From contig CAZSQP010000002.1 in the NCBI GenBank assembly GCA_964609075.1, forward strand, positions 8,235 to 72,234: 64,000 nucleotides of DNA, written 5' to 3'. The translations under genes and the position numbers were made by a program. Shown here piece after piece: positions 4,372-25,537 of the stretch. Origin of the DNA: an uncultured Candidatus Saccharibacteria bacterium. Its GTDB lineage: Bacteria; Patescibacteriota; Minisyncoccia; Minisyncoccales; GWA2-38-27. Position 1 is the first letter of the stretch. Each line of letters starts with the position of its first letter. A model generated the notes under the pieces. The model saw nothing but the letters and a program-made list of their open reading frames with translations, was not told where the DNA came from and made no database searches.

Positions 4372-5709
4372 TTAAGGTATTAGTTTTTCTGAATAATAGA
4401 AATTATTTTCTGAGAGAAGGTAAATGTTATTGTTTTTCCAAAGTATATCAGGATTATTAAATTGAGCTAGAGAAACAATATTTATTTTATCTCTGTCATC
4501 TGTTTCAGTTACTTTTATATCTTTATCTGTACTAAAGATTAAATAATGGTTTGTGTACCAGAAAACATTATTTATCTTTTCTGAAAGGCGGGTAATAAAT
4601 ACCTTATCTCCTGATTTTTTCTTTGGATATTCGTCGGTGTCTTCTAGAAAATAGATCCAGAGTTCTCCGTTATTGAAATAAGCAAGTTTATTTTTATCTG
4701 GAGAGAGTTTAAATTCTTTAGCTTTATCCGATATTTTTTCAAAAGAGCCTTCTTTTAAAAGGTAAAGGCTATCTTTTTCTTTTAGAAAGAAATAGGGCGA
4801 AGAATAATTTAGAGTATATTCGGTCTCTTTTTTAATAGGGAAAGCTTTTTGGTTAAGCTTTCTTTCGTTTTGAAAGGATAAATCGTTTTCAAAAAGGAAT
4901 CCTTCAGAATCAAGATAAAAAGCCTTATTATCTTCTATTTCAAAAGAAATAATGTTTTCTAATAAGGGATTTATTTCTTTTTTAGAAATGTCAGCTTTCT
5001 TTAACTCTTTTTCTTTGAGAAAGAAGATTATATCTTCAGATACTGGAAGGACCTTCTCTGGGCTTGGTAGAAAGCTTAAGGTGGTTATAACAAGAGGGTT
5101 CCTTTCTAAAAGATAGTATTTAAAACTTTCTTTTTCAAAAAGCTTTATTAAAAGATTATCAGAGAGAAATAATACATCAACTATTTGAGAAAGGTTTTTG
5201 GAAAAGTCATCTTGGTCTGCCAGATGGCTTTTTACTTTGTTTCCAGGGTTATATAGCTTTAAACTCCACTTTTCTCCGTTCTCTTCTAAAACTATCTCTT
5301 TATCTTTGTAGTAAAAAGATTTTGTATTCTGAGATATTTTTTCAAAATTTGGGTTTTTTGGAATTAAAACAATATTTTTAGCTTCTGTTACCTCGCCTCT
5401 TTTTATCTCCAGTGTTTTTTTCCAACTGTGATAGTCTTCCTTCTTAATCTCAACCTGGTATTTTTTTGGTAAAAGATTTTCTATGACTACAGAGCCAAAA
5501 AAGAAATCTGTCTTGTCTTTTGATTCTTGGTTAATAAAGACTTCTGCAGAATTAGGTCTTGTCTTGAAAAAGAAAATACCTGGTCTTGTTATTTCTCTTT
5601 CTTGCCAGTCAAATCTCCATCCTAAAGAGTAAGAGATAGCTAAAGGAGCTACAATTAAAAAAAGTATAGTTAAAACAATTATTAGAGTAATTCTCTTTCT
5701 TTTTGCCAT
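4372..5709 (-). CDS. Membrane-anchored PEGA-domain protein, function unknown
   Basis: N-terminal TM helix (ITLIIVLTILFLIVAPLAI) followed by a PEGA-like segment (SAEVFINQ..YQVEIKKEDYHSWKKTLEIKRGEVTE). The rest has no recognisable motif. Confidence 0.6.
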   Translation of the reverse strand: MAKRKRITLIIVLTILFLIVAPLAISYSLGWRFDWQEREITRPGIFFFKTRPNSAEVFINQESKDKTDFFFGSVVIENLLPKKYQVEIKKEDYHSWKKTLEIKRGEVTEAKNIVLIPKNPNFEKISQNTKSFYYKDKEIVLEENGEKWSLKLYNPGNKVKSHLADQDDFSKNLSQIVDVLFLSDNLLIKLFEKESFKYYLLERNPLVITTLSFLPSPEKVLPVSEDIIFFLKEKELKKADISKKEINPLLENIISFEIEDNKAFYLDSEGFLFENDLSFQNERKLNQKAFPIKKETEYTLNYSSPYFFLKEKDSLYLLKEGSFEKISDKAKEFKLSPDKNKLAYFNNGELWIYFLEDTDEYPKKKSGDKVFITRLSEKINNVFWYTNHYLIFSTDKDIKVTETDDRDKINIVSLAQFNNPDILWKNNNIYLLSENNFYYSEKLIP

Positions 5710-5901
5710 ATTATAATTTTATCAGAAAATAAAGATTTTTTAAATAATGGTTTTTGTTATAATAATAGTAGAGTATTTTAAAAATAATAAAGGGAGGAGA
5801 AGGCTTTAATTGATTAGTTTAGAGAAAGCCCAGGTAGGATTCTAGGCTCTTTTTCATGCTTGCCAATCTTAATAATTTAGACTAATATAGAATATAATTG
5901 T

Positions 5902-8204: not shown

Positions 8205-9046
8205 TTATAGGCCATGAGAAACAATGGCAGTTCCTAAAAAAAGCATCAGAGATGAAAAAGCTTCCTCATGCCCTTCTTTTTTCAGGACAAGAGAAGATAG
8301 GTAAAAAAACTTTAGCTTTGGAGCTTGGAAATTATCTGTGCGGTTCTTCTGTAGAAAAGCATCCTGACTTAATTCTAATAGAGCCCGAGAAGGAAAAAAT
8401 CCAGATTTTCCAGATAAGAGACCTTATTTCCCGTTTGTCTTTTAAACCTTATTCTGCTTCTTTAAAGATAGGGATAATAGATAAAGCTCATACCATGACC
8501 TTTGAAGCTCAGAGTTCTTTTTTAAAGCTTTTAGAGGAGCCTAAAGGAGATACTCTCCTAATCTTGATTACAGAATATCCAGAGACCCTTTTATCTACAA
8601 TTACTTCAAGGGTTCAAATTATGAGATTTTCTCCTGTTAAAAAAGAGCTGATTGAAAAGTACCTTCTTAAAAAAGGAATTTCGAAAAAGAAAGCAGAAAA
8701 GCTAACCTCTATTTCTCTAGGAAGACCGGGAAGAGTTATTGATTTTCTTTCAGATCCTCAGAAATTGGAAGAAAGAGAAAAAATAATAGATGATCTTTTT
8801 AAACTTAAGAATTCTTTTCTTTCTGAACGTTTTAAATATGCTAAAGAACTGAGTAAAGAAAGAAGAAAAGCAGAGGAGGTTTTTTCTTTATGGTTGGAAC
8901 ACTTAAGAAAAATTTTAATCACGAAAGAAAATTCTTTTGAGAACCTGTCATCTTTTATTAAAGAACTTCAAACAATTCGCTTTTTGCTTTATACTACTAA
9001 TATAAGTTGTAAGTTAGCTATTGAAAATCTTTTAATTCATCTTTAA
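8201..9046 (+). CDS. holB: DNA polymerase III delta-prime subunit
   Basis: KLPHALLFSGQEKIGKKTLA (degenerate P-loop), FLKLLEEP and TITSRVQ (SRC-like) motifs of clamp-loader delta-prime. Confidence 0.75.
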   Translation: MIIGHEKQWQFLKKASEMKKLPHALLFSGQEKIGKKTLALELGNYLCGSSVEKHPDLILIEPEKEKIQIFQIRDLISRLSFKPYSASLKIGIIDKAHTMTFEAQSSFLKLLEEPKGDTLLILITEYPETLLSTITSRVQIMRFSPVKKELIEKYLLKKGISKKKAEKLTSISLGRPGRVIDFLSDPQKLEEREKIIDDLFKLKNSFLSERFKYAKELSKERRKAEEVFSLWLEHLRKILITKENSFENLSSFIKELQTIRFLLYTTNISCKLAIENLLIHL

Positions 9047-10678: not shown

Positions 10679-12103
10679 ATGGAGAAAAAAGATTTGGTTA
10701 AAAAGACAGAGGATTTCTCTCAGTGGTACACAGACGTGATTATAAAATCTGAACTGGCAGATTACGCGCCCGTAAAAGGATGTCAGGTGATTAGGCCTTA
10801 TGGTTTTTCTCTTTGGGAAAATATTAAGGGAGTTTTGGATGAAATGATTAAAGAGGTTGGAGTCAAAAATGCCTATTTTCCTCTTTTCATACCAGAAAAG
10901 TTTCTTAAAAAGGAGAAAGAGCATATAGAGGGGTTTTCTCCAGAACTTGCTGTTGTCACTATCGGAGGAGGAAAAGAACTCAAAGAGAAGCTTGTTGTTA
11001 GGCCTACTTCTGAAACTATTATCTACAGCATGTTTTCTGACTGGATTAACTCTTGGAGAGATCTTCCTCTCTTGATAAACCAGTGGTCTAATGTTGTTCG
11101 CTGGGAAATGAGATCTAGATTATTTTTAAGAACAACAGAGTTCTTGTGGCAAGAGGGTCATACAGTTCATTCTACCCATAAAGAAGCTACGGATATGGCA
11201 GAAGAAATAATGAGAAGATATATTAAGCTTTATCAAGATTATTTTGCCATTGCAGGTTATACAGGCATAAAGTCAGACGCTGAAAAGTTCCCTGGAGCTT
11301 TAACTACTTATACCTATGAGATGCTTATGCCGGACGGAAAGGCTCTTCAGGGTTGCACGTCTCATGATCTAGGGCAGAACTTTGCTAAGGCTTTTGATAT
11401 TAAGTTTTCAGACAAAGAAGGAAAAGAAAAGTCTCCCTGGCAAACTTCTTGGGGTCTTTCTACTAGAAGCATAGGGGCTTTAATCATGTCTCATGGAGAT
11501 GATTCTGGACTTATTCTTCCTCCCAGACTAGCTCCTATTCAAATCGTTATAGTTCCTGTTTTGAAAAAAGGAAAGATAGATAAAAAGTTGTCTCAAAAAA
11601 TAGATAGGATAAAAAAGGATTTGAAAAATTTTAGGGTAGAAGTGGATTTAAGAGAAAATTATAGCTTAGGATGGAAATATAATGACTGGGAAGTAAAAGG
11701 AGTTCCTTTAAGAATTGATATTGGAGAAAAAGAGTTAAAAGAAGGAAAAGCCCTTTTGGTCAGAAGGGACAGTGGAGAGAAAAAATCAGTATCTTTCAAT
11801 TCTCTTTCTTCTCAAATAGAAAAGACGCTGGGTTCTATTCAAGAGGAGTTATTTAAAAAGAGTAAAAAGCACTTAAAAGAGAATACCAAAGAAGTTTCTG
11901 AGTATAAGGAATTTAAAGAGGTGATTAAAAAAGAGAAGGGATTTGTCAAAGCTTTCTGGTGCGGAAATCCTGAATGCGAGAAAAAGATTAAAAGAGAGAC
12001 AAAAGCTACTACTCGTCTTCTCTTTTCCGATTCTTCTAAAGGAAAGTGTATTTTCTGCGGTAAAAAAACTTCTCAAAAATGGCTATTTGCCCAAGCATAT
12101 TAA
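10679..12103 (+). CDS. proS: Prolyl-tRNA synthetase, archaeal/eukaryote-like type
   Basis: FSQWYTDVI start, class-II motifs (RPTSET, FLRTTEFLWQEGH) and a C-terminal Cys-rich domain (CGNPECE..CIFCGKK). No bacterial INS editing domain. Confidence 0.93.
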   Translation: MEKKDLVKKTEDFSQWYTDVIIKSELADYAPVKGCQVIRPYGFSLWENIKGVLDEMIKEVGVKNAYFPLFIPEKFLKKEKEHIEGFSPELAVVTIGGGKELKEKLVVRPTSETIIYSMFSDWINSWRDLPLLINQWSNVVRWEMRSRLFLRTTEFLWQEGHTVHSTHKEATDMAEEIMRRYIKLYQDYFAIAGYTGIKSDAEKFPGALTTYTYEMLMPDGKALQGCTSHDLGQNFAKAFDIKFSDKEGKEKSPWQTSWGLSTRSIGALIMSHGDDSGLILPPRLAPIQIVIVPVLKKGKIDKKLSQKIDRIKKDLKNFRVEVDLRENYSLGWKYNDWEVKGVPLRIDIGEKELKEGKALLVRRDSGEKKSVSFNSLSSQIEKTLGSIQEELFKKSKKHLKENTKEVSEYKEFKEVIKKEKGFVKAFWCGNPECEKKIKRETKATTRLLFSDSSKGKCIFCGKKTSQKWLFAQAY

Positions 12104-14207: not shown

Positions 14208-15617
14208 ATGAATCATAGAGGGCTTACTATCTACGAAATCCACAAGGGACTAATTAATAAAAAGTTTTCTGCAAGAGAGCTTGCTTTGTCTTTTTCAAGT
14301 AGAATCAAGAAAAAAGATAAAGATATATCAGCTTTTATTACAACAACAGAAGACCTAGCTTTATCTCAGGCTAAAAAAGTGGATGAGTTGATTTCTTCTG
14401 GAAAAGAGGTTCCTCTTTTAGCTGGTGTTCCCATGGCAGTAAAAGACAATATTTTGGTTGAAGGGGTTAAAGCTACAGCAGGTTCTAAGATTCTAGAGAA
14501 CTATATTTCTCCCTATAATGCTACAGTTATGGATAAACTGCTTAGTCTAGGGGCTGTTGTTCTGGGAAAGACAAATATGGATGAATTCGGTATGGGAGCT
14601 TCTACTGAAAACTCTGCCTTTTTTCCTACTAAGAATCCCCATGATTTAGAAATGGTTCCAGGAGGCAGTTCCGGAGGCTCTGCTGCGGCTGTAGCTTCAG
14701 GTATGGCGGTTTATGCTCTAGGATCTGATACAGGGGGGTCTGTAAGGCAACCTGCTTCTTTTTGCGGGGTAACGGGTTTAAGACCTACTTACGGAGCTGT
14801 TTCTAGATATGGCTTGATAGCTTTTGCTTCCTCTTTGGACCAAATAGGTCCTATTGCCAAGACAGCAGAAGATGCAGCTCTTGTTTTTAAAGAATTAACC
14901 GGAAAGGATAAGATGGATTCTACTAGTATTGATTTTTCTTGGAAGAAGGATGTTAAAGTTGATATTAAAAAGATTAGGATTGGAGTTCCTAAAGAATACT
15001 TTGTTAAGGGAATGGATGGAGAAGTAGAGAAAGTAGTAAAAGAAGCTGTTAAAAGATACGAGAAGATGGGAGCTGAGATAAAAGAGATAAGTCTGCCTCA
15101 TACTAAGTATGCTGTTCCTACTTATTATTTAATTAATACTTCTGAAGCTTCATCTAACTTAGCAAGGTATGATGGCATGAGATACGGTCTTTCAGAAAAG
15201 GAAGATAGCTTGCTTGATGTCTATAAAAAGAGTAAAGAGAAAGGTTTTGGCTCTGAGGTTAAAAGAAGGATTATGCTTGGAGCCTATGCTTTGTCTGCTG
15301 GCTATTATGACGCTTTCTATTTAAAGTCAGAAAAAGTGAGGACTTTGATTATAGAGGATTTTAATAAAGCTTTTGAAGAAGTAGACGTTGTTTTATCTCC
15401 CACATCTCCTACTCTTCCTTTTAAAATAGGGGAGAAGATTACAGACCCTGTTTCTATGTATTTATGCGATGTTTTTACAGCTCCTGCAGCCTTAGTGGGT
15501 CTTCCAGCAGTTTCTGTGCCGGGTGGTTTTGCAGGCAAGCTTCCCGTGGGCTTTCAATTGATAGGCCAACCCTTTGAAGATTATAAAATTCTAAAAATAG
15601 GAGAGTTTTTTCAATGA
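14208..15617 (+). CDS. gatA: Asp/Glu-tRNA amidotransferase subunit A
   Basis: Amidase signature GGSSGGSAAAVA..GSDTGGSVRQPASFCG. 469 aa. Confidence 0.95.
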   Translation: MNHRGLTIYEIHKGLINKKFSARELALSFSSRIKKKDKDISAFITTTEDLALSQAKKVDELISSGKEVPLLAGVPMAVKDNILVEGVKATAGSKILENYISPYNATVMDKLLSLGAVVLGKTNMDEFGMGASTENSAFFPTKNPHDLEMVPGGSSGGSAAAVASGMAVYALGSDTGGSVRQPASFCGVTGLRPTYGAVSRYGLIAFASSLDQIGPIAKTAEDAALVFKELTGKDKMDSTSIDFSWKKDVKVDIKKIRIGVPKEYFVKGMDGEVEKVVKEAVKRYEKMGAEIKEISLPHTKYAVPTYYLINTSEASSNLARYDGMRYGLSEKEDSLLDVYKKSKEKGFGSEVKRRIMLGAYALSAGYYDAFYLKSEKVRTLIIEDFNKAFEEVDVVLSPTSPTLPFKIGEKITDPVSMYLCDVFTAPAALVGLPAVSVPGGFAGKLPVGFQLIGQPFEDYKILKIGEFFQ

Positions 15618-16123
15618 ATTCTTTTTGGCAATTTATTTTAAACCCGGAGAATTATACTTTTTATAAGGTAATCAGATTTATCTTTATAGCTGTAGGCCTT
15701 TATCTCTTCGCCTGGATTTTATTCCTTTTACTAAAAAACAGCTGGCTTAGGTATAGGTATTTTGAAGACTATACAGAAGCCCTGTCTTATAAGCCTTTTG
15801 AGAGGAAGGAAATAGGGAAAAGATGGGATAATGTTTTAAAACATTTAGATTCTGGAAAAGAATCTGAGTTTAAAATGGCTTTAATTGATGCAGATAATAT
15901 TCTCTGGGAGGTTTTTCAAAAGATGGGGTATAAAGAGGAAACAATAGGAGATATTCTAGAGAATATAGAAGAAGGGGTTGTTCCCAAGTTGGATGAGATA
16001 AAAGAAGCTCACAGAATTAGAAACAAAGTAGTTCATGATCCAGATTACAGCTTAGACAGGGAAGAAGCAGAGAAGACCTTAAAAGTTTACGAGGAGACTT
16101 TAAGAAATCTGGAAGCTATTTAA
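15614..16123 (+). CDS. Membrane-anchored protein with C-terminal DUF4145/HEPN-like Rx4H motif, function unknown
   Basis: One TM helix (FIFIAVGLYLFAWILFLLL). The C-terminal helical domain contains AHRIRNKVVHD (R-x4-H). ATGA overlap with gatA. Confidence 0.5.
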   Translation: MNSFWQFILNPENYTFYKVIRFIFIAVGLYLFAWILFLLLKNSWLRYRYFEDYTEALSYKPFERKEIGKRWDNVLKHLDSGKESEFKMALIDADNILWEVFQKMGYKEETIGDILENIEEGVVPKLDEIKEAHRIRNKVVHDPDYSLDREEAEKTLKVYEETLRNLEAI

Positions 16124-16145
16124 TTAAAAATTCTCTTGAAATAAA

Positions 16146-16174
16146 GAAAATCCCGGAAGGGATTTCTTTTATTT
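16146..16174. terminator. Hairpin terminator after the 15614-16123 gene; also the left copy of a short direct repeat
   Basis: gaaaatccc-ggaa-gggatttc stem-loop followed by ttttattt. The 3' part (gggatttcttttatttgcg, 16159-16177) recurs at 24261-24278. Confidence 0.65.
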
Positions 16175-16183
16175 GCGAGTTTA

Positions 16184-16393
16184 TACAACGAAGTTAGAAT
16201 CTTTTTTATTGAAAATCTTTGACGATATTTTGTCCGCCGCCACAGGCAGCAGGCAGGAATAAAACTGAAAAATCGGCTCGGGTGCAAAAAATTTACTTTA
16301 GGGTGTGCGGAAAAAGAAAATTTTTTGCAGTCTTATTAGTTAAGCAAAAAAAATTGGGGCGAGACTGCAAAAATTAAAAATTGAAAATTAGAG
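16184..16393 (+). repeat. Left arm of a ~210-bp imperfect inverted repeat bracketing the biosynthetic island
   Basis: Hand alignment to the reverse complement of 23934-24141. Outer 16 nt match 15/16 (tacaacgaagttagaa), a central block matches 21/25 (tgaaaaatcggctcgggtgcaaaaa) and the inner 30 nt match 29/30 (actgcaaaaattaaaaattgaaaattagag). The stretch between these blocks has diverged. Confidence 0.85.
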
Positions 16394-16403
16394 ATGAAAT
16401 GGC

Positions 16404-16432
16404 TTGCGTTTTTTATAGGTATATGGTATAAG
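16404..16432 (+). promoter_or_regulatory. Candidate promoter for the island operon
   Basis: ttgcgt, a 17-nt spacer, then tgg-tataag (extended -10 style), about 40 nt upstream of the first island gene. Confidence 0.35.
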
Positions 16433-16472
16433 AAAATATAAATTTGCGTTTGGTGAGAAAACGAATAAAACA

Positions 16473-17543
16473 ATGGAAAAATGGCAAAATCAGTTAAAAA
16501 TGGGAATATCCTCAGTAGATAAATTAAGGGCTGCTTTTGAACGGGCTGGTATTAGAAAATCTGCTAATTTTTATCGGGAATTAGAAAAAGTTGTTAAATC
16601 GTATCCGATTTTTATTTCTCCCCACATTTTGAAACAATGTTTAAAATCAAAATCAATATATAAACAATTTATACCAGATAAAAAAGAATTAATTAATTTG
16701 AGAGGAGATAGTGATCCACTTAATGAAGACGACATAAAAGCAACAGATAAGTTGATCCATATGTATGCGGATAGGGTTTTGCTTCTAGTAACCGATATGT
16801 GTTTCAGCTCTTGCCGTTTTTGTACAAGAAAACGCATCAAGAAGTCTTGCGAGAGGATAACTTTAAAGCAGCTGGATGACGCCTGCAAATATATTGCTGA
16901 AAATAAGCAGATAAAAGATGTAATAATTTCAGGTGGCGATCCATTAACAATAGAAGATTCGGGTTTAAAAACAATTCTCGAAAGAATAAAAAAGATAAAA
17001 AGCGTAGAAGTTGTAAGAATAGGGACGAGAGCACCAGTTTCATGTCCCGAGAGAATTACCGATAATTTGGTTAAGTTGCTTAAAAAATTTAGTCCTTTGT
17101 ATATTAATATCCATTTAAACCATCCAGATGAATTTAGCCCGGCGACTGTTAGAGCTTTAAGGAAATTATCTATCGGCGGGATTATATTAGGTAGTCAATC
17201 AGTATTGCTGAAAGGAATTAACGATAGTAGTAAAACCATCAGAAAATTATTATATAAATGCTTGCAGAACGGTGTCAGGCCGTATTATCTTTATCAGTGC
17301 GACGAGGTTTTTGGAACAGAACATTTTTGGACAGATTATCAAAAAATGTTCGAGATAGCTCAAGATCTTATTGGTAATGTAAGTGGATTGGCAATACCTA
17401 ATTTTGTATTTGATTGCAAAGGTGGTTGTGGCAAAGTAAGAGTAATTCCGGAATTTTATAAACACAAAAACGAAAAAAGCATAACTTTTAAAACATTTAA
17501 GAATAAATTATATATCTATAGAAATTTGAATAATAAAAGATAG
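16473..17543 (+). CDS. KamA/EpmB-family radical-SAM amino acid 2,3-aminomutase (lysine 2,3-aminomutase-like)
   Basis: CFSSCRFCTRK (CxxxCxxC), VIISGGDPL, VRIGTRAPV, NIHLNHPDE, SQSVLLKGIND, RPYYLYQCD and GTEHF. This is the KamA family motif set. It is a short form (356 aa), so substrate specificity cannot be assigned. Confidence 0.88.
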   Translation: MEKWQNQLKMGISSVDKLRAAFERAGIRKSANFYRELEKVVKSYPIFISPHILKQCLKSKSIYKQFIPDKKELINLRGDSDPLNEDDIKATDKLIHMYADRVLLLVTDMCFSSCRFCTRKRIKKSCERITLKQLDDACKYIAENKQIKDVIISGGDPLTIEDSGLKTILERIKKIKSVEVVRIGTRAPVSCPERITDNLVKLLKKFSPLYINIHLNHPDEFSPATVRALRKLSIGGIILGSQSVLLKGINDSSKTIRKLLYKCLQNGVRPYYLYQCDEVFGTEHFWTDYQKMFEIAQDLIGNVSGLAIPNFVFDCKGGCGKVRVIPEFYKHKNEKSITFKTFKNKLYIYRNLNNKR

Positions 17544-17550
17544 GTTATCT

Positions 17551-18522
17551 ATGATTTATTCAAAAATATTAGACAAACTAGGCGATACTCCGATGGTTAA
17601 GATTGAACCGAAGGGTTTGGATAATATTAATTTATATGTAAAGTTGGAAGGATATAATCCTATGGGAAGTGTAAAAGATAGGGCGGCACTGTATATGCTT
17701 AAAAAAGGTATGGATTTGGGAGAAATCAATAGAGACACGGTTGTAATAGAATCGTCTTCCGGAAATCTCGGTATTGCGCTTTCTGCATATTGCAAGGATT
17801 TTGGGTTAAAATTTTATTGTGTTGTTGATCCACATATATCTTCGATTAATGAATATATTATAAAAACATTAAGTACCAAAATGATAAAAGTTACCGAACC
17901 AGATAAAAATGGAGGATATTTATTGAATAGGATAAGAAAGGTTCAAGAACTATTAAAAAAAATTCCGAATTCTTACTGGATAAATCAATATAGAAATCCT
18001 TATAATCCTGAGGCTTATAAAGAAACGTTAGGAAAAGAAATATGTGAAGAATTAAATAATATTGATTATATTTTTCTTGGAGTAAGTTCTGGAGGAACTA
18101 TTACTGGTTTGTCACAAAAAATTAAAAAGGTATTTCCCAAAGCAAAGGTTGTAGCGGTTGACATTATAGGTTCTGTAATATTCGGAGATGCTCCTAAAAA
18201 AAGATATATACCAGGGATAGGATCCAGTATCATACCCACCGTTTTAAAAGATGCAAAAATAGATGAAGTTGTAACTGTCAACGAGGTTTCTACAATAAAA
18301 ATGTGCCACGAATTGCTGAAAAATCATAATTTATTTGTTGGGGGCTCTTCTGGATCAGTATTCTCCGCTGTCAAAAGATATTTCAAGAATAAAAAACTTA
18401 AGAAAAGACCCACTGTCGTAGTTGTGTTTGCTGATAAGGGGGACAGGTATATTGACACGGTATATAATAAAAGCTGGTGTGACAGTTTTTTGCAGAAGTA
18501 TTCTGGAATAGAACAAATATAA
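17551..18522 (+). CDS. SbnA-like PLP-dependent enzyme (2,3-diaminopropionate biosynthesis, cysteine-synthase fold)
   Basis: GDTPMVKI, LEGYNPMGSVKDRAA (PLP Lys), SSGNLG, GGYLLNRI, WINQYRNPYNP and GVSSGGTITG. Directly followed by an SbnB-like gene. Confidence 0.82.
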   Translation: MIYSKILDKLGDTPMVKIEPKGLDNINLYVKLEGYNPMGSVKDRAALYMLKKGMDLGEINRDTVVIESSSGNLGIALSAYCKDFGLKFYCVVDPHISSINEYIIKTLSTKMIKVTEPDKNGGYLLNRIRKVQELLKKIPNSYWINQYRNPYNPEAYKETLGKEICEELNNIDYIFLGVSSGGTITGLSQKIKKVFPKAKVVAVDIIGSVIFGDAPKKRYIPGIGSSIIPTVLKDAKIDEVVTVNEVSTIKMCHELLKNHNLFVGGSSGSVFSAVKRYFKNKKLKKRPTVVVVFADKGDRYIDTVYNKSWCDSFLQKYSGIEQI

Positions 18523-18525
18523 CCA

Positions 18526-19494
18526 ATGATTTATTTAAACGAGGAAAATTTAAAAAAGATTGGAATTGATTGGAACGAAACCATTGCTACAATAGAGGAT
18601 GCAGTGAGGTGTTTGGATAAAAAAGATTTTTCTCAACCTATTAAACCATATTTAAGGTATAAAAATTTAGAGAACAGGATTATTGCCATGCCGGCGTATA
18701 TCGGCGGGAAATTCAACACGGCCGGAATAAAGTGGATTGCCAGCTTTCCCGGAAATATTGCAAAAGGCTTGCCAAGAGCTCATAGTGTGGTTGTATTAAA
18801 CAAAGCAGAAACCGGAGAACCTATGGCTATAATAAATACTTCGTTCTTAAGTATAATAAGAACAACTTCGGTAAGCGGGCTGATAATTAAATATTATAAC
18901 GAGATCAGAAAAGCAAAAGAGTTTAATTTAGGAATAATAGGATTCGGTCCCATCGGTCAGTATCATTTTAAAATGGCCATGGATTTATTTGGGAATAAAA
19001 TAAAAAAAATTTTCTTGTATGATATAAGATCGATTAATAAAAATAATATAGATAAAAAGTATATAAGCAAAGTTGAGATAAGCGACAAATGGGAAGAGGC
19101 TTACCTTAATTCTGATATAGTTATTACTTGTACAGTATCAAAGGAAAGATATATCGATAAAAAACCTAAAGAAGGATCTCTTCAGCTCAACGTTTCTTTG
19201 AGAGATTATAAAATAGAGACTTTCGAATATTTTAAGAACGCGATTATCGTTGACGATTGGGATGAGATTTGCAGGGAAAACACAGATATAGAACTTATGC
19301 ATAAAGAAAAAGGTTTAAAAAAAGATAATGTAAGAGATATCGCAGATGTTGTGTGTAGAAATTATTTTGAAAAATTAGAGGAAAAAGAAACAATAATGTT
19401 TAACCCTATGGGCATGGGAGTGTTTGATATAGCAATAGCCAAGTATTATTGCGGTAAATCCGAAGAGAAGGGAATCGGGAAGAATATTAAATAA
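18526..19494 (+). CDS. SbnB-like NAD-dependent dehydrogenase (ornithine cyclodeaminase/mu-crystallin fold)
   Basis: GIKWIASFPGN, LSIIRTTSVSG and the Rossmann motif GIIGFGPIGQ. Paired with the SbnA-like gene across a 3-nt gap. Confidence 0.8.
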   Translation: MIYLNEENLKKIGIDWNETIATIEDAVRCLDKKDFSQPIKPYLRYKNLENRIIAMPAYIGGKFNTAGIKWIASFPGNIAKGLPRAHSVVVLNKAETGEPMAIINTSFLSIIRTTSVSGLIIKYYNEIRKAKEFNLGIIGFGPIGQYHFKMAMDLFGNKIKKIFLYDIRSINKNNIDKKYISKVEISDKWEEAYLNSDIVITCTVSKERYIDKKPKEGSLQLNVSLRDYKIETFEYFKNAIIVDDWDEICRENTDIELMHKEKGLKKDNVRDIADVVCRNYFEKLEEKETIMFNPMGMGVFDIAIAKYYCGKSEEKGIGKNIK

Positions 19495-19569
19495 TTTTAA
19501 AATCTACCCAGTAGATTGTTCATTTAAAAATCGTTTAAACCGAAAACTCAGTCAGAAGGAGACATAGCC

Positions 19570-20583
19570 ATGAAAAAGATACTTGTGCTGTACAATCTGG
19601 CAGAACATTTGGATAAGGGAGTTCCAACTGATTTAGTTTGTGAACAGGAAATAACAATTATAGTACCACTGGTTGTAAAGATCCTTTCTAAAAGGGGCTA
19701 CGCAGTTGAGGCCCTAAAGGCAGATTTGAACTTGTGGGAAGAATTGAAAAGGAGACGAGGCAAAGTTGACATGGTGCTCAATCTTGCAGAAGCCTTTGGT
19801 GGTGGAAACGCAAACGAGCCATTGGTTCCTGCTATGCTTGAGGGATTGGGGATGCCGTTCACTGGGGCTTCATTGAGCAACATGACTTTCACTCTTGATA
19901 AAGAGAAGACAAAACTGGTCTTGGTTTCGTATGGCGTTCCTGTTGCTCCACATGTTCTTTTCAGGACTGGCAAAGAGCAACTGAACGACTTGGGTTTTCC
20001 TTTGATAGTCAAGCCCGTGAGGGAAGAGGCCAGTATCGGCATTTACCAGGATTGTGTCGTGGGCAACGAAGCTGACTTACGCAAGAAGGTTCTGTATTCT
20101 TTGGAGAAATATCGACAGCCGATAATGGCAGAGAGGTTTATCCAGGGGAGAGAGATCTCGGTCGGCGTGATTGGCAATCCTTCTAATCTGCATGTTTTTC
20201 CTCCGTTGGAATTCCTTTTCGAAGAAGCAGGGTCTGAACAGGAAAAAATCAGGTCTTATAAATACAAATGGGGAGGAAAGAAAGAACAGATGGTTCGCGC
20301 AGAACTGTCTAATAAAGTGATTGGGCAGCTGGGCGAATACAGTAAGATCTGTTTTGAGGCGACTGATTGCCGCGACTACGCAAGGATGGACTATCGGCTG
20401 GACCCGGAGAACAGGATTTATCTTCTTGAGGTTAACTATAATCCGGGTATCGGGCCGAATGATCATGGTTTAAATAATACGCTGACGATGATGGCGAGCT
20501 TTGAAGGATATTCCTTCGGAGATTTAATCGAAAGGATTCTTATCACAGCGATGGATCGATGCGGATTAATCGTCAGTGGGTAA
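19570..20583 (+). CDS. ATP-grasp ligase, D-Ala-D-Ala-ligase-like family
   Basis: Ddl-like layout: GMPFTGAS, DKEKTKLVL..GVPVAPH, PLIVKPVREEASIGI, AERFIQGREISVGV, ARMDYRL and LLEVNYNPG. The gene is visibly richer in G+C than its neighbours. Confidence 0.8.
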   Translation: MKKILVLYNLAEHLDKGVPTDLVCEQEITIIVPLVVKILSKRGYAVEALKADLNLWEELKRRRGKVDMVLNLAEAFGGGNANEPLVPAMLEGLGMPFTGASLSNMTFTLDKEKTKLVLVSYGVPVAPHVLFRTGKEQLNDLGFPLIVKPVREEASIGIYQDCVVGNEADLRKKVLYSLEKYRQPIMAERFIQGREISVGVIGNPSNLHVFPPLEFLFEEAGSEQEKIRSYKYKWGGKKEQMVRAELSNKVIGQLGEYSKICFEATDCRDYARMDYRLDPENRIYLLEVNYNPGIGPNDHGLNNTLTMMASFEGYSFGDLIERILITAMDRCGLIVSG

Positions 20584-20595
20584 CGTTTAGCATCT

Positions 20596-20629
20596 GGGGG
20601 CGTTTGGGTAGTGCGCCCCCTTATTTTTT
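20596..20629 (+). terminator. Rho-independent terminator after the Ddl-like gene (inside the island)
   Basis: gggggcg / cgccccc stem with an 11-nt loop, followed by ttatttttt. Confidence 0.7.
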
Positions 20630-20644
20630 GATATTATAAATCAT

Positions 20645-21991
20645 ATGAATTACAAAATTATAATTATAGCCAATATTGCAGAAGTATTTGAAGATGCTTT
20701 GAGTAAAGTTACGCCTAGACAGGAAAAAATTAGAAAAATTCAAATAGAGCATAATCTATGCGACAGAACATTATTGTGGGAAGGCGATGATAAAATTATC
20801 ATAACTCCGTTTCCGATATCCTCTCTGCTTTTTAAAAATAATGTAACGGCATTAGGTTTTAGAAATTGTTTAAACTTATCTCCGAAAAAGGTTAATATTG
20901 GTCTGTCTGAAGCGATAATGAATGATAAATTACTATTGAAAAAAATATCTGATATAATTAAAGATAAGCCGGGTATAAGAATTTCGCCGTATGCTGTTAC
21001 GCCAGCTTTTATAAATTTTATAGAATTTTTAAAAAGAAAAAACCTTAATTTTAAGGTAGAAGAAAGACCATATAAAAATTCAGACTGGACAGTTAAATTT
21101 TTAGATTCAAAGATAGGATCGAGATTAGAGATAGGTAAGATAAAGAATGAAGACATTAATATTCCAAAGAGCATCGTTTGTAGGAGTAAAAATGAAGCGA
21201 TATCTGTTGCAAGATGGTTTTATAACCAGAATATTTCCTGTGTGGTTAAAGCAAATTTCAGCGAAGGTGGCTGGGGGACATTGATGATAAAAAACAAGGA
21301 CAACAAATCTTGGAATGAAACATTATCGAAAATAAACAAAGAATTTAATAATGACTGTATTTGGGACGATGGATTAATCATAGTTGAAGAATACATTAAA
21401 GCGAAAAGGGGTATATCCAGCGGGTGTCCGTCGTCTGAGTTGTTTTTATCGGAAAGAGGTCCGAAAATTACTTATGTGTGCGACCAAATTGTAGCTGAAG
21501 CAGGAAATTTTTTGGGAATTACTCTGGGGAAAGGAGCTCTGGATAAAAATATTGAAAATAAAATAAATAGAGCGTCGATTCTTGTTGGAAGGAGATTTTG
21601 GGAGCTGGGATATAGGGGGTTTTTTGATATAGATTTCGTATTATCTAAAAAGAATAGAACCCTGTATATTATCGAGACTAACATGCGTCGAACGGGTGGA
21701 ACTCATATTTTTGATGTGGCAAAGTCCATTTTCGGAAACGATTGGAAAAACAAAGCATTTATATTGTCACAAGACTCCTTTTGTTACGGTAAAAAATTAC
21801 TATCCGAAAGAGCTATTTTAGAGAAAATAAAAGATATTTTATTTCCCATAGATAACAAAAAAAGAGGCGTTATAATATCTATAATAAACAAATGGAAGCC
21901 TACGATTGGCTTTATTATTATAGAAGAGTCATCAGAAAAAGCTTTGGAAATTTATTCAAAGATGAAAAATTTATTAAACGTTAAAAATTAA
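20645..21991 (+). CDS. Second ATP-grasp family ligase (larger, divergent)
   Basis: ISCVVKANFSEGGWG, IIVEEYI, FFDIDFVL and IIETNMRRTGGTH (ExN-type Mg/ATP site) fit an ATP-grasp C-domain. The N-terminal ~170 aa has no assignment. Confidence 0.62.
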   Translation: MNYKIIIIANIAEVFEDALSKVTPRQEKIRKIQIEHNLCDRTLLWEGDDKIIITPFPISSLLFKNNVTALGFRNCLNLSPKKVNIGLSEAIMNDKLLLKKISDIIKDKPGIRISPYAVTPAFINFIEFLKRKNLNFKVEERPYKNSDWTVKFLDSKIGSRLEIGKIKNEDINIPKSIVCRSKNEAISVARWFYNQNISCVVKANFSEGGWGTLMIKNKDNKSWNETLSKINKEFNNDCIWDDGLIIVEEYIKAKRGISSGCPSSELFLSERGPKITYVCDQIVAEAGNFLGITLGKGALDKNIENKINRASILVGRRFWELGYRGFFDIDFVLSKKNRTLYIIETNMRRTGGTHIFDVAKSIFGNDWKNKAFILSQDSFCYGKKLLSERAILEKIKDILFPIDNKKRGVIISIINKWKPTIGFIIIEESSEKALEIYSKMKNLLNVKN

Positions 21992-22002
21992 TAACCAAGA
22001 AC

Positions 22003-22509
22003 ATGAATAAAATAATGTTAAAAATAAAGCCATTTCAAGAAAAATTGAATTGTAGCTATTGTGGACCAGCAACTTTGAAGATTTTGCTAAATTATTACGG
22101 AATAGAAAAATCAGAAAGAGAATTGGCTAATATGTCGGGGTGGGACAAGGATCTGGGAATAGATGATAAAGGAATTAGACGAGCAGCAGAATCACTCGGT
22201 TTTAAAGTAGAAATAAAAAATAATAGTAGCTATAAAGATATTCAGAAATGGCTAGATAAAGGCATTCCAGTTATTGTTAACTGGTTCACGCGAGGTAGAA
22301 ACGATTATCCAGAGTCAGAAACAGCTGACGGCCATTATTCAGTTGTAGCAGGCTTAGATAATAGATTTATTTATCTCCAAGATCCTGAGATAGGAAAAAT
22401 GAGAAAAATTAAAAGATATGATTTTATGAGAGTGTGGTTCGATTTTAAAGGCGATTATATAAGGCCAAACGAGTTAATTATAAGACAGATTATTGTGATA
22501 CATAAATAA
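22003..22509 (+). CDS. Stand-alone C39-like papain-fold cysteine peptidase
   Basis: FQEKLNCSYCGPATLKILLNYYG (Q...CG nucleophile context), DGHYSVVAG (His) and YLQDPE (Asp), matching the C39 catalytic order. No ABC transporter is attached. Confidence 0.62.
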   Translation: MNKIMLKIKPFQEKLNCSYCGPATLKILLNYYGIEKSERELANMSGWDKDLGIDDKGIRRAAESLGFKVEIKNNSSYKDIQKWLDKGIPVIVNWFTRGRNDYPESETADGHYSVVAGLDNRFIYLQDPEIGKMRKIKRYDFMRVWFDFKGDYIRPNELIIRQIIVIHK

Positions 22510-22510
22510 T

Positions 22511-23884
22511 ATGTTTGAAGATTATCATTTTTCTGAAGACGCAAAGATAATTACTAAGAAAATACCTGGAGAGAAATCTTTGGAGCTTTTAACTGAACAA
22601 GAGAAATTAGAAAGCAAAAATCGATCATATCCTCGAGATATACCAATTACTTTTGAGTCCGCGAAGGGTGCGACCGTTAAGGACGTCGACGGGAATATTT
22701 TTATAGACTTCCTCTCCGGTTGCGGTGTTTTGAATTTAGGCCACAATAATCCAGAAATTTTAAAAGACATAAAAGAACTGCCCGATGCCGTAATGCATGC
22801 ATTGGATTTTCCTACAAAGATAAAAATTGATTTCATGAAAGAGCTTCTTTCATCGCTGCCTAAAAAACTACAAGGCAAATATAAAATTAGTTTTGGAGGT
22901 CCAACAGGATCGGATGCAGTAGAAGCCGCAATCAAATTAGCAAGAATAAATACTGGCAGGCATACTATCCTTTCCTTTCAAGGAAGTTATCATGGCATGA
23001 CGATGGGCGCTTTGAGCGTTACAAGCAGTCTCCGTCACCGGGAGGAAGTTAACCCACTTATTCCCGGGGTACATTTTATGCCTTATTGCAGTTGTTATAG
23101 GTGTCCAATGGATATGGATCAAAAAAAATGCAATTTCGAATGCGTTCATTTTTTGAAGAATGCTTTAGAAAATCCTTATTCTGGTATAGACAAACCAGCG
23201 GCGATAATCATTGAACCAATTCAGGGAGAAGGCGGGGTATATATACCAAGAGATGGTTGGTTAAAAAAAGTTGTCGATCTTGCAAGAAAAAATGGAGTGG
23301 TTGTTATATTTGATGAAGTTCAAGCCGGATTCTATAGAACTGGTAAGCTTTTTTCTTTTGAACATACTAATACAGTCCCCGATATTATAACAATGTCTAA
23401 GGGCATTGGAGGAATTGGATTACCCTTGTCTTTAATACTTTTAAGAAAAGAGTTGGATATATGGGGGCCGGGAACCCACGTAGGAACATTTAGGGGAAAT
23501 CAGCTTGGAATGGCAGCTGGCTTGTCTGCAATAAGATTTGTTAAAAGAACGAATATCGAAGATTATGTTTCTAAGACGGAAAAAATATTCCTGAAAGAAT
23601 TAAATAATATACAGAAAAAATCAAAGTTCATTGGAGATATAAGGGGTAAGGGAATGATGTTTGGTATAGAATATGTAAAAGACAAAAATACTAAAAAACC
23701 ATTTTCTGAATTAACAAAAAAGGTAAGGAAACTTTGTTACGAAAACGGCTTATTGGTTGAGATTGGAGGGTATTATGATAACGTCGTAAGACTTTTGCCG
23801 CCGCTAATAATAAGTGAAAAAATTGCGAAAAACGGATTAAGCATATTTAGAAAGGCAAACATTTCAGCAAAAATAAAGTCTTAA
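22511..23884 (+). CDS. Class-III aminotransferase, diaminobutyrate-2-oxoglutarate transaminase (EctB/Dat) type
   Basis: SYPRDIPITFESAKGATVKDVDGN..LNLGHNNPE, FGGPTGSDAVE, IFDEVQAGFYRTG and TMSKGIGG (Schiff-base Lys). Confidence 0.83.
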   Translation: MFEDYHFSEDAKIITKKIPGEKSLELLTEQEKLESKNRSYPRDIPITFESAKGATVKDVDGNIFIDFLSGCGVLNLGHNNPEILKDIKELPDAVMHALDFPTKIKIDFMKELLSSLPKKLQGKYKISFGGPTGSDAVEAAIKLARINTGRHTILSFQGSYHGMTMGALSVTSSLRHREEVNPLIPGVHFMPYCSCYRCPMDMDQKKCNFECVHFLKNALENPYSGIDKPAAIIIEPIQGEGGVYIPRDGWLKKVVDLARKNGVVVIFDEVQAGFYRTGKLFSFEHTNTVPDIITMSKGIGGIGLPLSLILLRKELDIWGPGTHVGTFRGNQLGMAAGLSAIRFVKRTNIEDYVSKTEKIFLKELNNIQKKSKFIGDIRGKGMMFGIEYVKDKNTKKPFSELTKKVRKLCYENGLLVEIGGYYDNVVRLLPPLIISEKIAKNGLSIFRKANISAKIKS

Positions 23885-23933
23885 AATAAATTACACGCCT
23901 AAAACCTAAGTAAAATCGGGTTTTTAGCTTCAA

Positions 23934-24141
23934 CTCTAATTTTCAATATTTAATTTTTGCAGTTTTGCCTTAATTTTTTCTGGTTAACCAGTAAGACTAA
24001 AAAAATTTCTTTTTGCTCACACTTAAAAGAATTTTTGCGTCCGAACCGATTTTTCGATTTTGCTTTTGCCCCACCCTACTGAAGCAAAGCGGAGCAATTT
24101 TGTCAGGAGTTTTAAATAAAATAGGTTCTGACTTCGTTGTA
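23934..24141 (-). repeat. Right arm of the ~210-bp imperfect inverted repeat bracketing the island
   Basis: Its reverse complement aligns to 16184-16393 (see left arm). It contains a perfect 12-bp palindrome ctggttaaccag (23981-23992) that is absent from the left arm. Confidence 0.85.
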
Positions 24142-24149
24142 AAGACGTA

Positions 24150-24167
24150 GAGACGACCGGACTCGAA
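24150..24167 (-). other. Orphan copy of the tRNA-Asp 3' end (T-loop to acceptor), att-site-like remnant
   Basis: gacgaccggactcgaa (24152-24167) is identical over 16 nt to 24281-24296 inside tRNA-Asp, in the same orientation. The flanks do not fold into a tRNA. Confidence 0.7.
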
Positions 24168-24248
24168 GGAGCTGTCCGAAGGTATTCCCTCCCTTTGGTC
24201 GGAATTCGGGAAGTCCGATTCTCGCCAGATCGCTTACCCGAAACAAAA

Positions 24249-24276
24249 AAGACCCCAAGGGGGTTTTCTTTATTTG
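24249..24276. terminator. Bidirectional hairpin terminator downstream of the minus-strand tRNA operon; right copy of the short direct repeat
   Basis: aagacccc-aag-ggggtttt stem-loop flanked by A-run and T-run. gggttttctttatttgcg (24261-24278) resembles 16159-16177. Confidence 0.6.
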
Positions 24277-24350
24277 CGGGGACGACCGGACTCGAACCGG
24301 CAACCTCATCCGTGACAAGGATGTGATCTAGCCAATTGATCTACGTCCCC
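24277..24350 (-). tRNA. tRNA-Asp (GTC)
   Basis: Hand-folded cloverleaf: acceptor GGGGACG/CGTCCCC, anticodon arm CATCC-TTGTCAC-GGATG, T-arm GCCGG-TTCGAGT-CCGGT. 74 nt, CCA not encoded. Confidence 0.92.
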
Positions 24351-24354
24351 CCTT

Positions 24355-24430
24355 TGGTGCCGGTGGTGGGATTCGAACCCAACGACCTGAGGCTTATGAG
24401 TCCTCCGCTCTGCCACTGAGCTACACCGGC
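24355..24430 (-). tRNA. tRNA-Met (CAT), elongator-like, CCA encoded
   Basis: Acceptor GCCGGTG/CACCGGC, anticodon loop CTCATAA, T-loop TTCGAAT, 3' ACCA. One mismatch each in the anticodon stem and T stem in my fold. A lysidine-dependent Ile2 identity cannot be excluded. Confidence 0.8.
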
Positions 24431-24460
24431 CCTTTTTTGTAATTTGTACTATTCTTAATG

Positions 24461-24531
24461 TTGCGGGGACAGGAGTTGCACCTGTGTCTCGAGGTTATGG
24501 GCCTCGCGAGATACTACTTCTCCACCCCGCA
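24461..24531 (-). tRNA. Initiator-like tRNA (CAT) with non-canonical loops
   Basis: The 5' part TGCGGGGTGGAGAAG resembles bacterial tRNA-fMet (CGCGGGGTGGAGCAG). Anticodon arm CGAGG-CCCATAA-CCTCG, T-arm ACAGG-TGCAACT-CCTGT, acceptor TGCGGGG/CCCCGCA. Confidence 0.7.
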
Positions 24532-24572
24532 GGGATATATTAACTTATTTTTTTTATAAAATCAACCCTCTG

Positions 24573-24601
24573 TTGACATAGATAATATCTATTAGTAGGA
24601 T
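24573..24601 (+). promoter_or_regulatory. Candidate sigma70-type promoter upstream of the pyrD-like operon
   Basis: TTGACA (24573-24578), a 17-nt spacer, then taggat followed by aaaat. Lies between the divergent tRNA operon and the 24638 gene. Confidence 0.4.
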
Positions 24602-24637
24602 AAAATATCTTTGGTTCATTGAAAAAAGGAGAAGAAA

Positions 24638-25537
24638 ATGATAGAGCTGTCAAACAAGCATAGATTTGAGTATATGGTAGCTTCTGGAGCCCTAGCCTTT
24701 GATGGAGAAGGATGGTTCTGGGAAAAGCCTTTAAAATGGCTGGGATTGCTGGATCCTACTCTTTTCACTGTTGTTATTAAAACATTGACCTTCAAGCCGA
24801 GAGAAGGAAATCTTAGGTGGTACAATCCTTTCAGGTGTATTCGTCTAATCAGAAAAGGATTGAGAGTGGAAGGCACGCTTAATTCGGTGGGTCTTACTAA
24901 TAAAGGCTACCTTTGGTGGTGCCATGAAGTAGGTCCTAATGTGTCAAAGAAAATGTCCCTAGTAGGTTCTATTTTCTGTGAAGATCCGGAAGAAGTTCTC
25001 GAAATGTGTTTAGCTTTAAATCCTTTTGACTTTGTCGCTATAGAGCTCAATGCTTCATGTCCCAATACAGAGAGTGGGGTTTTAGAGAATACAGAAAAAA
25101 TTGTAGATTGCTGTAAAAAAGCAAAAGATTATTCAAGGTTTCCTTTAATTCTCAAGCTTTCTGTGATTCATGACGTAGAAAGGATCATTCCTGAAGTTGA
25201 GGGTATAATAGAAGCTGTTTCCATAAACAGTGTTCCTTGGAACATTGTTTATCCTCATAAAAAGAGTCCTTTGGCTCATTTGGGTGGCGGAGGAGTATCT
25301 GGAAAAGTGGCTTCTCCTTACACCTGGGACTTTGTAGAAATGTTGGCTTATAAGTTTTCTGTCCCGGTGATAGGTCCCAGCGTTTGGGACTTTAAGGATA
25401 TTCAAGGATTAAGGGACTTGGGAGCTGAGGCTATAAGCTTTGGTTCAGTCTTTCTCCCTTATCCTTGGCGTCCTACACTTTTTGTGCGTCGGGATATAAG
25501 AAGGCTCGCAAGAACAGAGAAAGGGGAAAGGATATGA
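24638..25537 (+). CDS. pyrD: Dihydroorotate dehydrogenase family protein (class-1-like)
   Basis: SVGLTNKG, ELNASCPN (class-1 catalytic Cys motif), GGGGVSGK and a TIM-barrel-like pattern. RBS aaaggag upstream. Confidence 0.78.
   Translation: MIELSNKHRFEYMVASGALAFDGEGWFWEKPLKWLGLLDPTLFTVVIKTLTFKPREGNLRWYNPFRCIRLIRKGLRVEGTLNSVGLTNKGYLWWCHEVGPNVSKKMSLVGSIFCEDPEEVLEMCLALNPFDFVAIELNASCPNTESGVLENTEKIVDCCKKAKDYSRFPLILKLSVIHDVERIIPEVEGIIEAVSINSVPWNIVYPHKKSPLAHLGGGGVSGKVASPYTWDFVEMLAYKFSVPVIGPSVWDFKDIQGLRDLGAEAISFGSVFLPYPWRPTLFVRRDIRRLARTEKGERI

Follow-up and report, generated by a model that had tools for sequence, protein, structure and literature searches.

The 16-nt duplicate of the tRNA-Asp 3' end that lies downstream of this gene is best read as the seam between two insertions and not as the outer edge of an island. 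In the window (the whole stretch of 64,000 nucleotides that was analysed), DNA has been inserted between the tail of a terminator and tRNA-Asp; the inserted DNA has the anatomy set out in Table 1 and contains no mobility genes. With a probability of about 0.5, the locus holds two insertions stacked at one tRNA-Asp 3' end, one of them a T-loop-class exchange of the integrase type, and both of them immobile fossils, since neither part has a recombinase. Because the searches turned up neither an integrase or transposase nor another copy of any part, we infer the mechanism, including the enzymes involved (a tyrosine integrase among them) and the order of events.

Table 1. Features of the tRNA-Asp locus, in window coordinates
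Feature	Position	Strand	Details
Host 169-aa gene, left syntenic anchor	15614..16123	plus	No Pfam or NCBIfam family
Ancestral bidirectional terminator and tail TTTATTTGCG	16144..16177	both	Hairpin 16148-16165; terminator scan
Left arm of inverted repeat	16179..16398		Outer terminus GTTTATACAACGAAGT; GCAAAAA motifs; 17-bp palindrome (16283-16329)
Seven-gene cargo operon	16473..23884	plus	Pfam and NCBIfam
Right arm of inverted repeat	23929..24146		Outer terminus (minus strand) GTCTTTACAACGAAGT, ending at 24146
Displaced tRNA-Asp 3' fragment	24147..24167	minus	Core TTCGAGTCCGGTCGTC (T54-C69, 24167->24152) plus TCTAC (positions 70-74)
Unique 77-nt spacer, fragment to second terminator	24168..24244		No match in the window or the other loci
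Second, imported bidirectional terminator and tail TTCTTTATTTGCG	24245..24278	both	Hairpin 24249-24267
Intact tRNA-Asp(GTC)	24276/7-24350	minus	ARAGORN; Rfam 66 bits; block identical to fragment, 24281-24296
tRNA-Met	24355-24430	minus	In the cluster whose first gene is tRNA-Asp
tRNA-Met	24460-24531	minus	In the cluster whose first gene is tRNA-Asp

The 16-nt core, GACGACCGGACTCGAA, occurs exactly twice in the window, at 24152-24167 and 24281-24296, on the same strand and 129 nt apart from start to start, in agreement with the first-pass annotation (~130 nt). Further copies, for which that annotation advised a search, are absent from the window at up to 3 mismatches (0.08 expected), and neither the core nor the 10-mer of the terminator tail (0.18 expected) can be put down to chance. 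Within the gene, the core spans T54 to C69, comprising the T-loop, the 3' strand of the T-stem, and most of the 3' acceptor strand; among the 7 tRNAs of the window, only tRNA-Asp shares a run of 12-mers with sequence elsewhere. Identity between the copies is complete at 16 of 16 positions, after which three of the next five nucleotides differ, and on the 5' side it ends abruptly at T54. Neutral decay would have to spare ten G/C positions while changing three of five adjacent ones, and the perfect core, the changes beside it, and the unrelated 5' side fit an identity block for recombination and not the decay of a duplication. The core has edges resembling those of an attP/attB identity block. 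In tRNA-targeting islands, the T-stem region is one class of attachment site, and of the anticodon and T-stem/loop sublocations that Islander recognizes for crossovers, the present block falls within the latter, in an intact target gene, tRNA-Asp(GTC) (PMC4383910).

The core and the five nucleotides that follow it make up a full tRNA end, from T-loop to discriminator. When the fragment (24167->24147) is grafted onto the body of tRNA-Asp, ARAGORN calls a complete tRNA-Asp with two G-U pairs (G1-U72 and G3-U70) and A73. A cognate 3' piece that lies downstream of its gene in the same orientation, as this one does, is the standard signature of tyrosine-integrase insertion into tRNA genes (PMC4383910). 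The fragment has no 5' tRNA half according to ARAGORN, Rfam, and a similarity test against the tRNAs of the window, and the expectation that 24147-24245 is not a complete tRNA was borne out, with no tRNA, tmRNA, or Rfam family detected there by ARAGORN or by Rfam at either the gathering threshold or an E value of ≤10. Outside the core, this segment is no more similar to tRNA-Asp or to the other window tRNAs than shuffled sequence is (P = 0.32). A decayed tandem copy of tRNA-Asp was considered and rejected, similarity being confined to the core. The 24147-24244 region folds no better than shuffled sequences on either strand (z scores of -1.4 and -0.9). The 77-nt spacer has no Rfam match, viral contigs gave no match to a 22-nt probe from its fragment-proximal end, and its translation in six frames yielded nothing interpretable as a coding remnant.

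Read along the minus strand, the locus starts with the body of tRNA-Asp, its core (24296->24281), CCCCG, the CAAATAAAGAAA tail, and the second terminator (to 24245), which is followed by 77 nt (24244->24168), the copy of the core (24167->24152), and TCTAC (24151->24147). Then come the right arm (24146->23929), the seven genes in antisense, and the left arm (16398->16179), followed by a T, CGC, the CAAATAAAAGAAA tail, the first terminator, and the 169-aa gene. The two 16-nt repeats enclose only 113 nt, made up of the second terminator and the 77 unique nucleotides, and the 7,968-bp cassette delimited by the arms is outside them, distal to the fragment and between it and the ancestral CGC, tail, and terminator. 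The right arm begins at the base directly after the fragment; on its far side, the cassette gives way to C72-G73-C74 of the ancestral tRNA end and then to the ancestral tail and terminator. At its edges, the cassette adjoins the extreme 3' end of the tRNA in two versions (TCTAC at one edge; T, CGC, and the tail at the other), and with the end of the fragment and the ancestral tRNA end on either side, it sits inside a tRNA-Asp 3' end. Another tRNA 3' end, which has a terminator of its own, lies upstream of the cassette in the direction of the tRNA. In silico removal of 16178-24146 leaves no more than 5 nt between TTTATTTGCG and the core and creates a junction resembling that of the live tRNA at 42 of 56 aligned columns, and at 26 of 30 across the tail, junction, and core.

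This arrangement bears on two earlier claims. In the classic footprint, the island has the intact tRNA at one end and the displaced fragment at the other, such that Islander equates the island with the interval between them (PMC4383910); here that interval is 113 nt. The first-pass annotation had taken the duplicated motifs as the outer boundaries of the island, which does not hold, as the cassette is bounded by its own inverted repeats and by the two versions of the tRNA end. Its proposal of an integrase footprint stands in part: the fragment is genuinely part of a tRNA 3' end and is correctly oriented, but only 113 nt separate it from the tRNA, and the cassette is outside. An element of 113 nt is far below the size of a functional integrative element, so that either a large internal deletion or a mechanism other than an integrase must be assumed.

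The terminator motif noted earlier at both the left edge of the island and the tRNA-Asp end does recur, with 16144-16177 and 24245-24278 being 74% alike over 34 nt at a spacing of 8101; the 10-mer TTTATTTGCG is present exactly twice in the window (16168-16177 and 24269-24278). The left motif is the terminator that the 169-aa gene and tRNA-Asp had ancestrally; as in L001 and L002, it is continuous with the former gene, and the GCG with which its tail ends corresponds, on the minus strand, to C72-G73-C74 of the original tRNA-Asp end. The right terminator is a second copy, brought in with the inserted DNA, and its tail overlaps the tRNA-Asp end by 2 to 3 nt.

Unoccupied sites, another of the Islander criteria (PMC4383910), are found in three relatives: L001 and L002, which are GTDB genomes labelled uncultured Candidatus Saccharibacteria, and L018, a Logan contig. 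In all three, gatA, the 169-aa gene, one terminator, and tRNA-Asp (minus strand) directly adjoin one another, with only ~40 nt from the stop codon of the 169-aa gene to the tRNA-Asp end. In L001 and L002, tRNA-Asp is followed by at least one tRNA-Met and then by the orthologue of window gene 24638-25537. The flanks are orthologous on both sides, and their proteins are 73 to 84% identical in the three relatives (169-aa protein, 82% in L001, 80% in L018, and 73% in L002; GatA, 84%; right-hand 299-aa protein, 77% and 76%). The one-terminator empty sites indicate that the window carries an insertion between the 15614-16123 gene and tRNA-Asp, as had been predicted, with a size of 8,101 bp taken from the spacing of the repeats. 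Neither the fragment nor the second terminator is present in L001, L002, or L018; an island-free relative with the fragment and both terminators had been named as the observation that would speak against an insertion.

Close relatives of the 169-aa protein numbered only three in a search of 5.8 billion proteins, all of them at empty sites, and a metagenome scan with the same protein added no further host relatives. The few known relatives include no intermediate state, whether a 129-bp unit lacking the cassette or the reverse. The island is not compositionally distinct, with a G+C content of 0.345 versus 0.354 for the rest of the window. Next to these sites, L001 lacks the second tRNA-Met (T-arm GGTGCAACTCC) that the window (24430-24640) and L002 (10698-10886) carry, and has in its place ~540 nt of unassigned sequence (10700-11242). 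In the more distant relative L019, which encodes a 166-aa orthologue of the 169-aa protein (47% identical), a group I intron (Rfam RF00028, 83.6 bits, 8819-9006) interrupts the anticodon loop of the adjoining CAU-anticodon tRNA (tRNA-Met type; region 8795-9046).

The inverted repeat reported beside the fragment was confirmed. Its arms are ~220 nt long and imperfect, with four collinear blocks that are 76 to 83% complementary (73% by global alignment), and the cassette termini read GTYTWTACAACGAAGT. Terminal inverted repeats of this kind are a criterion for DDE-type transposons and insertion sequences; a transposase gene, or the multiple copies that would mark a non-autonomous member, was not found. 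Each arm has three to four occurrences of the motif GCAAAAA, and a 17-bp palindrome (TGCAAAAAATTTACTTT / AAAGAAAATTTTTTGCA) is present in the left one; such elements may bind proteins or may simply reflect A-tract bias. The cassette is flanked by GCGA and GTAGA (plus strand), leaving a 3-bp target duplication (GAG, 16177-79 and 24150-52) or a degenerate 5-mer as possibilities, neither of them clean. BLAST detected no other copies of the arms, the spacer, or the fragment junction in the window or in 21 loci; four scans of viral contigs found no copies of the parts, and one scan of JGI metagenomes found no instance of the inverted-repeat pattern. By these searches, the arms appear so far to be unique to this genome. 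Two candidate identities were rejected: a known riboswitch or small RNA in the arms, for which there was only subthreshold noise, and a composite of paired MITEs, as judged by eye from inner and outer arm ends that are not mutual inverted copies.

The arms bracket a complete operon of seven amino-acid-ligation genes, encoding a KamA-family radical-SAM aminomutase, SbnA, SbnB, a Ddl-like ligase, a second ATP-grasp ligase, a C39-like peptidase, and an enzyme of the diaminobutyrate-transaminase family. SbnA and SbnB score above the NCBIfam cutoffs, indicating a predicted capacity for 2,3-diaminopropionate synthesis, and the pathway as a whole looks like one that makes and ligates diamino or beta-amino acids. 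A candidate extended -10 promoter, identified by eye, is at 16404-32 (TTGCGT-17-TGGTATAAG), and the operon terminator ends just before 23929. According to Pfam and NCBIfam, there is no integrase, transposase, or excisionase among the seven cargo proteins or in either neighbouring gene, which bears out the suggestion of an island devoid of integration machinery; the tyrosine integrase by which tRNA-targeting islands are recognized is missing (PMC4383910). Many Patescibacteria have the same operon, with an ATP-grasp protein 53 to 80% identical, in unrelated genomic surroundings and in some cases next to tRNA genes, a distribution that marks it as horizontally moving. At these other sites (L005-L017, L020, L021), no homologous inverted repeats and no integrase were found in the flanks.

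Several features of the operon vary. The Ddl-like ligase gene (19570-20583) has a G+C content of 0.45 and a GC3 of 0.49, as opposed to 0.31 to 0.36 and 0.26 to 0.32 in its six operon neighbours, which suggests a mosaic origin within the operon. L016 and L017 carry shorter variants from which SbnA/B and the transaminase are missing, and L020 contains a further radical-SAM gene as well as an additional ORF of 454 aa. The five contigs that reach the typical operon start (L005, L006, L007, L010, and L015) end within 350 nt upstream of it (first 90 to 350 nt) and extend for kilobases downstream, which suggests a repeat or hypervariable junction immediately upstream of the operon in those genomes; L016 and L017, with the shorter variant, are exceptions. 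A tRNA-like 3' end (...CTCTTCGAATCCTTCCGGGGGCGCCA) precedes the operon at L015 1-130, L010 1-40, and L014 5440-5560, in a genome whose ATP-grasp protein is 72% identical; it has no canonical T-stem and no Rfam match. On both sides it has TATCTAGTGATG as a direct repeat (19/21) together with T-loop-like TTCAAATCC pieces, which occur in either orientation, and it may constitute a second case of tRNA-end scars around this operon. Directly after tRNA-Thr in L014, a tRNA-shaped sequence (5681-5757; GCGCCCGCAGC...GGTTTCGACTCCTATTGGGCGCTA) that ARAGORN does not call may be a tRNA with an unusual anticodon arm.

Under the preferred reading of two stacked insertions, one event would have brought in DNA with a copy of tRNA-Asp from T54 on, together with its own acceptor end and terminator. 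Crossover within the 16-nt identity block would regenerate a perfect tRNA 3' end and push the previous one 129 nt downstream, where it would persist as the orphan fragment, with 113 nt of the element left. In the other event, the 7,968-bp operon bounded by inverted repeats would have entered the tRNA 3' end at positions 70-72. The cassette may have come first, into the real gene, with a workable wobble-paired TCTA acceptor that was later repaired by the integrase-type exchange, or it may have come second, into the already displaced dead copy. The chance is about 1 in 8 that three random bases would all pair with GGG, which argues weakly for the cassette-first order. At present, the fragment would be inert, and the second terminator would serve the tRNA operon as well as read-through from the cargo operon. 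For insertions stacked at one tRNA, tandem arrays are a known precedent (PMC4383910).

A single element of 8.1 kb lodged just past tRNA-Asp would need one event and is more economical than two, and the 8,101 bp that the relatives lack coincide exactly with the stretch delimited by the tail repeats (16165-16177 and 24266-24278). Crossover would then have occurred in the T-rich tail TTCTTT(T)ATTTGCG, the true attL/attR, and the 16-nt piece would be an internal relic from an earlier host or from imprecise excision. We consider this unlikely, because it leaves unexplained both the full, stem-compatible tRNA end of the fragment and the placement of fragment and tail at 0 and 1 nt from the inverted-repeat termini, and it reduces to coincidence the tRNA-end junction rebuilt by deletion of the cassette. 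Moreover, the hairpins beside the tails differ (74% over 34 nt), and the tails themselves are ordinary terminator U-tracts of which the relatives have similar strings (TTTTGTTTGCG in L002).

It is similarly doubtful that no site-specific recombinase took part, with the 129-bp unit arising by a homology patch from a related strain and an illegitimate join, or by local duplication and repair, and the cassette by transposition or homologous exchange. The donor of such a patch would be the tRNA-Asp and downstream terminator region of the related strain, with the homology lying towards the tRNA. The cargo and the neighbouring genes include no recombinase gene, and the imported terminator and tail resemble a native region downstream of tRNA-Asp. 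Differences between the tRNA-Asp genes of the window and L001 are denser at positions 54-73 (4 of 20) than in the remaining 5' part (3 of 54; Fisher exact test, P of ~0.08, counted by hand from an alignment), a hint that the 3' end was replaced. Against this, the block starts exactly at the first T-loop base and extends in the 3' direction, as in known att sites of the T-loop class (PMC4383910), and an illegitimate join has no reason to fall at T54. A functional tRNA-like or small RNA at 24147-24244 that shares a T-arm/acceptor module with tRNA-Asp is most improbable: the minus-strand core can pair with the upstream GAGAAUCGGACU in a 12-bp helix, and a terminator follows on the plus strand, but the 5' strand of the T-stem is missing, no tRNA, tmRNA, or Rfam family matches, the folding energies are ordinary (z, -1.4 and -0.9), and the segment is not conserved, being absent from all three relatives. 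A more elaborate possibility, to which we give little credence, is that the cassette represents a new non-autonomous element of Patescibacteria that homes to the last bases of tRNA-Asp, yields the wobble-paired TCTA end, and is mobilised in trans, the 129-bp unit being a miniature integrative "tRNA-repair" element with only a tRNA 3' end and a terminator.

The locus records, at nucleotide level and with empty-site controls, that a reduced, uncultured lineage of Patescibacteria gained a diamino-acid/ATP-grasp biosynthetic operon horizontally, with a tRNA gene as the landing pad. The mobile-element biology of Patescibacteria is poorly charted. Should the cassette belong to a mobile family, it would point to a transposition system that targets tRNA ends and acts in trans. 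The locus also calls for caution with the rules used in mapping islands, as the displaced tRNA fragment does not delimit the cargo here.

Among known systems, the locus is most readily compared with the tRNA islands and prophages mapped by Islander, with which it shares a regenerated intact tRNA, a downstream 3' fragment in the same orientation, a block starting at the T-loop, and empty sites; the stacking of two insertions at this tRNA-Asp resembles the tandem arrays that Islander resolves (PMC4383910). Unlike those islands, neither unit has an integrase, the interval between tRNA and fragment is 113 nt, and the large cargo unit lies beyond the fragment with C72-G73-C74 as its only tRNA piece. 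The orphan T-loop-to-acceptor piece near its parent gene is reminiscent of the pseudo-tRNA remnants of excised or deleted prophages. Unlike such remnants, the imported replacement end and its terminator have been kept, and the two junctions of the event are both preserved, separated by almost nothing.

Some Tn7-like and CRISPR-associated transposons insert beside tRNA 3' ends, and the cassette, like some Tn7-like elements, is situated beside one. Its imperfect arms of ~220 nt, reiterated GCAAAAA motifs, and operon running from promoter to terminator recall non-autonomous cargo transposons with the multisite ends of Tn7-like or Mu-like elements. Unlike these elements, the cassette has no transposase, clear target duplication, or second copy, and its termini are GT.T.TACAACG as opposed to the typical 5'-TG...CA-3'. 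On present evidence, the locus is a decayed genomic-island scar of an ordinary kind with an unusual layout, in which the sole unusual element is a cassette that has long inverted repeats and no recombinase and is lodged in the 3' end of a tRNA.
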